Shown here piece after piece: positions 7,390 through 9,323 of a stretch of 26,342 nucleotides of DNA. The notes below the pieces were generated by a model. The model was given only the letters and a program-made list of their open reading frames with translations. It did not search any database and was not told the DNA's origin. The translations under genes and the position numbers were made by a program. Each line of letters starts with the position of its first letter. Position 1 is the first letter of the stretch. Source of the stretch: a virus (lineage: Duplodnaviria > Heunggongvirae > Uroviricota > Caudoviricetes); IMG/VR virus record IMGVR_UViG_2850796239_000005, positions 1-26,342 of that record; one strand, given 5' to 3'.

Positions 7390-8078
7390 TAGTTATTAAC
7401 CCCCCATTGTTCTCCAAATACAAAACCAATTTCCGCCAGTGCTTCGTCCATTTTGTCGATGAACTCCGGCACCATCTCATCAAAACTCGTCATGTACTTT
7501 TCATCCCGCTCGACCACGACATAATGCAGGCCTTCACGCTTCATGCGTGGGTCGTAGTTGGCGAAGTACCAGGCGTCCTTGTCTGTAACCCACATGCTGA
7601 ATTGCACTTGGGCCATGTAAGCAGGCTTGATAGCGTCAAAGCCGCCAAGCCGGAACTTCATGAAGTCGCGGGAAGTGAAGGGGCATTTAAGCTCAAGGCC
7701 GTTACCGTCGCTGCATAAACCGTCGGGAGAGCAGGCGGTGCGCATGCTTTCGTCACGAAAAATTATTGGCGTTTCCGAGACGGTAACATCCGCGATAAAT
7801 TCGAAGATGGCACGGGCATCATCTTCGTATTGCTTTCCCCATGCGAGCGACTTAGCGTTAACTTCCGGTGCCACGCCGGTACAAACTTCAGCCAGCAGGG
7901 TGTGGAAGTATGAGATTTTTGTATCAGGCCATTTGCTGCCGGAACGTGGCTTTGCTATCACATTGTGAACTTCTGAAGCAGTGATAACACCGAGTCTCAG
8001 CTTGTGCCATCCATCATCGCCCTGGTCGAGGCTGGTAATATCCACGCCAGTTCGCTGGAGAATAATTTCTGGTGTCAT
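7389..8078 (-). CDS. exo: Lambda-type exonuclease (Red-alpha, YqaJ family)
   Basis: [47 protein letters not shown]...[21 protein letters not shown]... is near-identical to lambda Exo as recalled. ATG at 8078-8076. Confidence 0.9.
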
Positions 8079-9024
8079 GACACGGCCTCGCTGCTATTTT
8101 CCGTGGTGGCGTGAATTTTCGCTTCCGCCGTGGCCTTGTTTCTGGCAGCTTTCTTTTTGACAAAATCAAGCGTTTTGACAGCTTCTTCCTGACTGAGATA
8201 TTCATGTGATGCAATCGTGCGACGGAATGTTTTGGAACATAAGGGAAGCAGGTCATCCCATGTCTTGTTAATTTCGGTGATTGCCTGAGTGATCTCATTG
8301 ATAATCTCATCTGATGCGGGAGTGACGTCACGCTCAGGGATGTGATCAGCATTCAGGATGATACCTTCACCGGCCTGAGTGTTCAGGTAGTCGATAGCTG
8401 TATCCAGGCGATCGCGACGGGGCCAGTATTTGCTGGCGCGCTTACAATGGCTTTTCTGGCCATTTCATCGGGGAAACTATCCCACGGGCTACTTCCTCCG
8501 TTATTTCCGGCTTTGCTGCACGCCCTGATGACCTCGATTTCCCTGTTGCTCATCTCTTCGGTCAGATAGTCGCCTTCGGATGTTTTTACGACACAATAAC
8601 CGCCAATGCGTGCGCCCCTGTCTACGAATGGGTTGTATTTGTGCGTGGGGGCGCAGTCAATACCGTTGGACTCGTAAATGTCCTTCTCGTAAACAAGTTT
8701 GCATTGCCCCCACTGAATGGCTCCTGTGACCTGTGCCAGATGCAGAAGCCCCATATAACTGATATCCAGGCATACAGCCTTTTTTCGTGGGACCAGATAC
8801 GCCAGCTTGCTGGCCGGGTTCAGGGTTATGCCGATGGCGGCAACATTGATGATAGCGTTCTGTGCGCTGGGCAGATTTGCCCGTGCTGTGTCAGCCAGAA
8901 AGGCATTTTTCTGGAATTGCTGAATTGCAAACTGACTTTCCTTCGCCCATGTCAGCGTCGGTTCAGTTAATGCCTCGCAGAAAAAGCGCTCCTGCTGCTT
9001 AACAAATTCAACGATATCGAACAT
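8075..9024 (-). pseudogene. RecT-family recombinase with Bet-like C-terminus, frameshifted as sequenced
   Basis: Frame A (9075/9024 to 8383) carries RecT-like ...EIEVIRACSKAGNNG...PDEMARKAIV then goes out of frame. Frame B (about 8445 to 8075) reads KRASKYWPRR...INKTWDDLLPLCSKTFRR...EAVKTLDFVKKKAA... (Bet-like C-terminus) and its stop overlaps the exo ATG. Junction at plus-strand 8441-8446; one extra A would join the frames. Start could be ATG 9024 or 9075. Confidence 0.7.
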
Positions 9025-9041
9025 TTTTTTGGTCCTGAAAA

Positions 9042-9323
9042 TCAGAAAGGACAGGGGGAGAATTTTCTCTCCCATTCTTCTTCCGCCCGAGCATAGGCGA
9101 TCGCTGAGATATAATCGTTGTACGCCTCTTCAGCTTTTTCGCCAGTGAGTGCCAGTTGGGCTTCTTTGGGTAAAAAAAGGCTGCTCATAAGCAATGGTTT
9201 ATCGGGGAACATGCTGATAAGCTCCTGCGCCCGATCATCAATCCATTTATCCTTTTCATCCTGAATATGCTGATTAACCCAGCGACGCTCCTCTATGCGG
9301 TCGCAGGTGAGGTATGCGTTCAT
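9042..9323 (-). CDS. Hypothetical early-left phage protein (93 aa)
   Basis: Intact ORF, ATG at 9323-9321, co-oriented with the early-left operon. No family recognised. Confidence 0.45.
   Translation of the reverse strand: MNAYLTCDRIEERRWVNQHIQDEKDKWIDDRAQELISMFPDKPLLMSSLFLPKEAQLALTGEKAEEAYNDYISAIAYARAEEEWERKFSPCPF

Follow-up and report, generated by a model that had tools for sequence, protein, structure and literature searches.

A phage RecT-family annealase pseudogene with a predicted Red-beta-type tail in a decaying lambdoid prophage

How can a phage recombinase gene begin like RecT in one reading frame and end like lambda Bet in another, and is the break between the frames the seam of two fused parts or damage to a gene that was already whole? 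This question is raised by a 26,342-nucleotide (nt) stretch of DNA from a Caudoviricetes virus (IMG/VR record IMGVR_UViG_2850796239_000005, positions 1 to 26,342; hereafter the window), in which such a gene lies between gamL and exo. The initial annotation, made from the letters of the sequence, had read the gene as a natural fusion of a RecT core and a Bet tail, paired with a lambda-type exonuclease (Exo) and joined at the point where the frame changes. We find a gene of this two-part design that has lost one base, and the loss does not coincide with the junction between its parts.

The gene is part of a module on the minus strand with the layout of a Red-type system: gamL, a host nuclease inhibitor gene and the first of the module (9323-9042), the recombinase gene (9024-8075) and exo (8078-7389) are read in one direction. 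The same gam-annealase-exo order is found in Escherichia coli, phi80, Klebsiella and Serratia; GamL is annotated at the homologous E. coli position, and for a gene identical to that of the window the Pfam GamL family is recorded in CP026875.1. From an ATG at 9024, frame A encodes 194 RecT-family codons (9024-8443; MFDIVEF...PDEMARKAIV), which cover a RecT/Rad52-like DNA-annealing core matched by Pfam RecT. In translation these are followed by 19 out-of-frame codons, SAPANTGPVAIAWIQLSTT, which matched nothing, and by a premature TGA at 8385-8383 (codons and stop together, 8442-8383). Frame B, one base back, is open from 8464, reads KRASKYWPRRDRLDTAIDYLNT...INKTWDDLLPLCSKTFRR...EAVKTLDFVKKKAA...AVS, and continues for 122 codons past the break in frame A to a TGA at 8077-8075, which overlaps the exo start at 8078 as ATGA, as had been noticed at first reading. 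The overlap between the two frames is 60 nt long (8443-8383). We rejected separate expression of the tail: with no ATG, GTG or TTG in frame B from 8464 to 8084, the tail could not be produced on its own.

Alignment with intact homologues, including a three-way alignment with loci L001 and L002, placed a single missing base between plus-strand positions 8443 and 8444. Where the coding strand of the homologues has ATT GTT AAG CGC, that of the window has ATTGTAAGCGC (GTT AAG against GTAAG), so that the base lost is the T of GTT, at codons 194/195. The initial annotation was right that one base is missing and wrong in proposing an A, although the repaired protein (..IVKRASKYWP..) is the same with T or A inserted. 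With this one base restored, the gene encodes 316 residues, matches annotated intact homologues, and is 99% identical to WP_000459721.1, an intact 316-residue 'RecT family recombinase' of Shiga toxin (Stx) prophages in enterohaemorrhagic E. coli (EHEC). The window copy has no uninterrupted frame for the whole RecT core, owing to the 1-bp deletion after codon 194, and is a pseudogene of the RecT family.

The RecT character claimed for the first two-thirds of the gene was borne out. Against Pfam RecT (PF03837, cutoff 24 bits), frame A alone scored 75.8 bits and the repaired protein 86.9 bits, with the match reaching residue 204 only in the repaired frame; against NCBIfam TIGR00616 ('phage RecT family', cutoff 52.65) the repaired protein scored 65.8 bits. 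Lambda Bet also matches Pfam RecT, so the Pfam profile does not separate the RecT and Bet branches. NCBIfam does separate them, as lambda Bet itself scored 169.5 bits on TIGR01913 (bet_lambda), a profile to which the repaired protein had no match at E <= 1. For structural comparison we used an AlphaFold2 model of an intact, 99%-identical homologue (P0003; 31-sequence alignment, mean predicted local distance difference test score, pLDDT, 78.5), in which residues 1-213 form an N-terminal domain, 214-231 a disordered linker, and 239-251, 256-266 and 279-314 helices. In Foldseek searches with this model, the best match of the N-terminal domain in the PDB was Listeria RecT (7UB2; E 3.2e-6, 197 columns, a modest target template modelling (TM) score of 0.54), and no Red-beta N-terminal-domain structure was among the PDB matches at E <= 0.001. 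Profile scores and predicted structure thus support a core of the RecT branch with a Rad52-like annealing fold.

The last 120 or so codons had been likened to the C-terminus of lambda Bet, and here too the searches agreed. With the PDB chains of Red-beta's C-terminal domain (CTD) as phmmer references, the tail matched 8TFU at E 8.3e-19 and 6M9K at E 1.1e-14, and BLASTP against lambda Bet aligned only Bet residues 140-261, at 43% identity over 129 residues. In the P0003 model the tail superimposed on 6M9K_D with a TM score of 0.91, a root-mean-square deviation (rmsd) of 0.8 Å and 52% identity; over 6M9K and 8TFU together, TM scores were 0.87-0.94, rmsd 0.6-1.0 Å and identities 52-55%. The layout of N-terminal domain, disordered linker and three helices is also that of Red-beta (Caldwell 2019, PMC6393309). 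Residues 232-300 (8332-8126) make up the three-helix Bet-type domain, predicted to bind Exo and the host protein SSB, which binds single-stranded DNA, and keep the pocket residues L223 and F249 (Bet numbering). Residues 301-316, with the TGA (8125-8075), form a C-terminal extension that lambda Bet does not have.

The point at which the frame changes is not the seam of the chimera, as had been proposed. The frameshift falls inside the RecT core, after residue 194; the end of that core, residues 195-213 (KRASKYWPRRDRLDTAIDY; 8443-8387), can be recognised from the repaired Pfam match and the alignment and is now unreadable. The true boundary between core and tail is the linker, residues 214-231 (8386-8333), 60-110 nt downstream of the frameshift, where pLDDT falls below 50 in the P0003 model and sequence conservation among homologues collapses. 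The next gene, exo (8078-7389), is an intact lambda-type 5'-3' exonuclease gene of 229 codons and encodes the predicted partner of the tail; its product scored 98.2 bits on Pfam YqaJ and is 86% identical to lambda Exo at the amino acid level and 81% at the nucleotide level. When the window was compared with lambda by blastn (word size 7), similarity at the DNA level was confined to exo (81%) and absent from the tail, so the mosaic does not stem from a recent exchange with lambda itself. A natural RecT-core/Bet-tail chimera next to a lambda-type Exo is therefore what the locus held, with one change of scope: judged from the homologues, the chimera is a standing architecture of a large family of Enterobacterales phages, phi80 Rec included, and no peculiarity of the window.

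Our explanation, which we consider very probable, is that the gene is a pseudogene of a phage single-strand annealing protein, in the gam-recT-exo module of a defective Shigella-lineage lambdoid prophage riddled with insertion sequences (IS), and that an intact two-module gene lost one base. The intact 316-residue protein would have combined a RecT-branch annealing core, a disordered linker and a Red-beta-type three-helix CTD. By analogy with lambda, the CTD would dock on helix E of the adjacent lambda-type Exo trimer and so load the annealase on the 3' overhang made by Exo, before hand-off to host SSB. With one base gone at codons 194/195, translation would end after 194 native and 19 foreign residues, and the loss would cover the last conserved core helices, the linker and the whole docking domain. 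Translation would also stop about 305 nt before the exo start, ending the coupling that the ATGA overlap would formerly have provided; given a GAGG motif 9 nt upstream of the exo ATG, exo may still be initiated independently to some extent. Red-beta lacking its CTD anneals DNA in vitro and gives no recombination in vivo (PMC5052646). Since core end, linker and docking domain are all lost, the recombinase is most probably dead, leaving an Exo that is intact and probably without its partner.

The distribution of the deletion points to a mutation inherited within a Shigella lineage. By megablast, 143 complete E. coli genomes (EHEC O157, O145, O103, O111 and others) carry the gam-recT-exo block at 99.1-99.3% identity, and 62 phage records carry it at >=80% coverage, with 76 records at >=99% identity; among the phages are Stx2a phages of the O104:H4 outbreak type. 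In these genomes and phages the recombinase is annotated as an intact 316-residue 'RecT family recombinase'. A 69-base probe across the site found the deletion in none of 150 sites in 147 E. coli genomes and in none of 98 phage records. An exact-pattern scan of 185,579 species-representative genomes found no deletion allele either, a result that is uninformative, as Shigella is probably folded into E. coli there. Exact look-up of the truncated 213-residue product, by contrast with these blanks, returned seven public contigs. The deletion allele is present in the finished 5.16-Mb chromosome CP026875.1, which is 100% identical to window positions 5383-12024, and in the assemblies of three read sets, each from a different archive: SRR1811688 and DRR015921, with 3 and 1 single-nucleotide polymorphisms (SNPs) relative to the window, and ERR200286, identical over its length. 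A 230-residue call of the same open reading frame (ORF) has been deposited as EFW56490.1, 'RecT protein [Shigella boydii ATCC 9905]', and the exact Exo protein of the window carries the source name 'MULTISPECIES [Shigella]'. As one allele recurs in a finished chromosome, in the S. boydii draft and in three read-set assemblies, the available records indicate an inherited mutation and not a sequencing error.

Among the alternatives, the one that survives best, and that we still regard as unlikely, is that the 213-residue product is retained for some benefit, perhaps as a core-only annealase or a dominant-negative protein that interferes with recombination by superinfecting phages. The persistence of the allele in several isolates would fit this idea, as would the behaviour of C-terminally truncated Red-beta, which anneals DNA and forms filaments in vitro (PMC5052646). 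The break in the window gene, however, does not come after the core, as it does in the Red-beta 1-177 constructs: it lies inside the core and removes K195, A197, K199, Y200, W201, P202, R206, L207, D208, A210 and I211, eleven residues between K195 and I211 that are invariant in the 31-sequence alignment. No selection is needed for an allele to persist in a clonal, pseudogene-rich Shigella lineage, and the carrier isolates differ by no more than 3 SNPs in 4 kb.

That the gene is intact in the organism and was broken by a sequencing or assembly error is more improbable still. A single-base lesion in a short run (TT to T), seen in no E. coli or phage record that we probed nor in the species-representative scan, might look like such an error. 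A run of two bases is, however, an untypical site for homopolymer errors; the truncated product or allele recurs in all the Shigella-lineage sources named above, and two of the three read-set assemblies stand 1-3 SNPs from the window and thus come from different isolates. Least credible of all is programmed -1 ribosomal frameshifting or transcriptional slippage, by which one gene would yield both a short core-only and a full-length protein: a -1 slip anywhere in the 60-nt overlap would restore the protein, and frame B has no start codon of its own, but a single frame is kept in some 245 close homologues and in all 18 close viral loci, with the two-frame layout in no homologue, the site C ATT GTA AGC contains neither an X XXY YYZ slippery heptamer nor a long A/T run (no heptamer or homopolymer at 8441-8450), and the surrounding prophage bears other lesions of decay.

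If the inactivated gene was once a working chimera, its intact relatives should be instructive, and they are numerous: 5,534 protein clusters match the repaired protein, and PHROG 148 covers its full length. Within the family alignment, core identity holds at about 60% but the type of tail varies: it is Bet-like in E. coli/Shigella, Klebsiella and Serratia, diverged in Morganella and Yersinia, and unrelated in Salmonella and Enterobacter. The change of tail went with a change of neighbour. All five neighbourhoods with a Bet-like or diverged tail continued directly with a YqaJ/lambda-Exo gene, and both of those with an unrelated tail continued with a 160-residue Sipho_Gp157-family gene and no exonuclease. 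We then classified 79 viral loci with this core, whose Exo identities span 42% to 99%. A Bet-like tail was followed by a lambda-Exo-type gene at 43 of 44 loci (no match at the remaining one), and the alternative tail ('tail B') by a Gp157-like gene at 32 of 34 (no match or no ORF of at least 100 residues at two); one locus with another tail had a lambda-Exo-type neighbour. Cross pairings were absent, with no locus combining a Bet-like tail and a Gp157-like neighbour and none combining tail B and lambda-Exo.

In the loci with the alternative tail (L066-L101; for example L008, 1263-2631), the same RecT core carries an unrelated tail of about 100 residues. In 32 of the 34 viral loci the gene that follows encodes a 160-residue Sipho_Gp157 protein (PF05565) and usually overlaps the annealase gene stop to start. 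The constancy of this pairing makes the Gp157 family a candidate for an unrecognised annealase partner.

For the Bet-like tail, the crystal structure of the lambda complex indicates where a link with Exo could be read in individual residues. There, a tail pocket of L223, I227, F249 and L250 receives T90, L91, F94 and T95 of Exo helix E, and L223, F249, L91 and F94 are essential for the Exo/Red-beta complex (PMC6393309). At these positions the window has L, T, F and V in the tail and A, I, F and I in Exo, which leaves three of the essential four unchanged and replaces the other conservatively (L91I). This change, at Exo codon 91 (window position 7808), is private to the window copy: L stands here in lambda and in the 15 other unique members of the window family. 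Constraint may have been relaxed once the partner was lost, though the change is one conservative substitution.

In 48 unique annealase/Exo pairs, every helix-E state of Exo went with one state of the pocket at 227, 249 and 250, while position 223 varies within a state (V in phi80; L, V or I in the window family). Exo T/A/R-L-F-T at 90/91/94/95 goes with tail LIFL at 223/227/249/250 (VIFL in phi80), both on the Bet cores of lambda, SEN34 and Klebsiella phage 2b and on the RecT cores of Klebsiella, Serratia, ENT47670 and phi80. Exo A-L-F-I goes with (L/V/I)-T-F-V in the window family, M-T-F-Y (M-S-F-Y at one locus) with FKML in the Morganella group, and (F/L)-L-F-E with ALSM in the Yersinia group; locus L065, with Exo EAAA and tail WVFA, stands outside these groups. 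In the window family, tail positions 227 and 250 and Exo positions 90 and 95 have changed together. Tail identity and Exo identity were correlated across the pairs with a rho of 0.88, a value that is descriptive only, the genes being linked. That one tail/Exo state occurs with two different cores is, at the level of sequence, the clearest indication that tail and Exo move together and that the core is what has been exchanged.

Several considerations weigh against our reading of the locus and of its interface. The window pocket has T and V at 227 and 250, where lambda has I and L, and the docking of tail on Exo is drawn from homology with lambda at about 55% tail identity. The 79 loci are interrelated, so that the counts overstate the number of independent events. 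The case against a sequencing error would weaken to the extent that the public assemblies are not independent. Finally, by analogy with truncated Red-beta, which anneals in vitro, the 213-residue product may have kept a residual or altered activity.

A broader reading of these patterns, to which we give about an even chance, is that the tail is a cassette that may have been grafted onto at least three annealase cores (Bet, RecT-branch and ERF-superfamily), with Gp157 as an unrecognised annealase partner. The Bet cores that carry it are those of lambda, SEN34 and Klebsiella phage 2b, and the RecT-branch cores those of the window family, phi80, ENT47670 and prophages of Klebsiella and Serratia. 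The third core comes from one protein. With the tail alone as query, a word-indexed protein search gave 8 fragments and no more; an exhaustive search of 1.84 billion representatives returned 22 matches, mostly Bet fragments, and was useful only for P0173. This 249-residue protein (contig of GCA_015689235.1) has an ERF-superfamily core (PF04404, 82 bits) and a Bet-like CTD 57% identical to the window tail, with GamL encoded upstream. No exonuclease was among the called genes on the 0.5 kb downstream on that contig, so the cassette idea is unsupported for P0173. The sequence facts behind the cassette reading are solid; physical conservation of the docking is uncertain, and the modularity of the tail may have been described before.

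Set beside known systems, the window gene is closest to the EHEC/Stx recombinase (WP_000459721.1; phages P13374, TL-2011c, phiON-2011 and PA2), with which it shares the gamL-recT-exo order and the ATGA overlap and from which it differs in being one base short and truncated at residue 194, its Exo bearing the private L91I. Phi80 Rec ('RecT-phi80') is 54% identical over its full length, Bet-like tail included, scores above the TIGR00616 cutoff and is flanked by gamL and a lambda-like exo; deletion of phi80 rec lowers recombination with diverged prophage DNA (PMC3945230), and the phi80 record already notes 'bet' for this gene. The tail of the window protein (232-300) is homologous to the lambda Red-beta CTD, known in complex with lambda Exo (6M9K) and with the SSB tail (8TFU/8TG7). 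The core of the repaired window protein, in contrast to that of Red-beta, lacks a TIGR01913 match and any sequence match to Bet 1-139, the pocket of the tail pairs T227/V250 with Exo A90/I95 in place of I227/L250 with T90/T95, and 16 residues are added at the C-terminus. Rac RecT and the RecT of Listeria phage A118 (7UB2) belong to the same Pfam and TIGR families and share the predicted core fold, but the window protein is not an orthologue of Rac RecT, scoring 71.8 bits on the Rac RecT equivalog profile NF007351 against a cutoff of 296. The partner of Rac RecT is RecE and not lambda Exo, which it does not bind, and Listeria RecT has only about 26 residues past its core (PMC11611040), whereas the window family has a Bet-type domain of about 70 residues and a lambda-type Exo as its predicted partner. 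In the Salmonella/Enterobacter sister branch (P0155, P0140), the core is about 60% identical and passes TIGR00616, the tail is unrelated, and the 160-residue Sipho_Gp157 protein (PF05565) takes the place of the exonuclease.

The window gene by itself is ordinary, one more inactivated prophage gene in a Shigella genome; its intact form is already annotated, and the family has been characterised genetically. The modularity of tail and partner is a modest lead. The partner-binding tail of phage annealases appears to be portable and to travel with its exonuclease, with the interface residues shifting in step, and the states T227/V250 with Exo A90/I95 and I227/L250 with T90/T95 offer natural swap sets for annealase/exonuclease engineering. 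The Gp157 family would supply a new candidate for a partner protein. Whether RecT-type annealases bind their partners through a Red-beta-like CTD is named as an open question in a 2023 review (PMC11611040); by profile and predicted structure, one large RecT-branch family carries such a domain, and the cassette reading, if true, would answer that question at the level of sequence.

The rest of the window is the early region of a decaying lambdoid prophage, with four IS3-family-type copies in 26 kb and an integrase gene at the left edge, and a recombinase gene with a frameshift is in keeping with this. The next gene downstream of exo, whose start shares a base with the exo stop, encodes a 315-residue Ead/Ea22 and DUF551 fusion (6442-7389). 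Its exact sequence is on record in one contig, its 90% cluster has 7 members, and the E. coli homologues have a different, 195-residue hypothetical gene in this position. Further on, at 5049-6258, is an IS3-type element with a 108-residue orfA and an rve/orfB frame split into overlapping ORFs (5372-5728 and 5590-6258), which looks like a second frameshifted gene in the window. Another IS copy (3417-4768), with a 301-residue rve/HTH_21 transposase after a 153-residue ORF that has no Pfam match, is inserted between the recombination module and two tandem paralogues of 260 residues (1184-1966 and 2166-2948). These have antirepressor-like ORF6N domains, one of them with a P22 AR C-terminal domain, and share a 131-nt direct repeat at 81% identity.

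Past gamL, the order is Rha/Ash, HicAB, a cI-like S24 repressor, helicase, primase, a cut NinG, lysozyme and Rz. The HicA/HicB toxin-antitoxin pair (11711-12055 and the gene upstream) thus lies between the Rha/Ash gene and the repressor. NinG (17349-17660) is cut to 103 residues that match profile positions 1-111 of 193, and the lysis genes follow within about 1 kb (on to 18273), so the region of Q, late control and, in Stx phages, stx appears to be deleted. Two 1266-nt IS3-family copies (19932-21197 and 24474-25739; 100-residue HTH_Tnp_1 and 272-residue rve ORFs) are 100% identical and inverted. They flank 3276 nt with a portal gene and a 539-residue ORF on the strand opposite to the lysis genes, an arrangement suggesting IS-mediated inversion within the late region.

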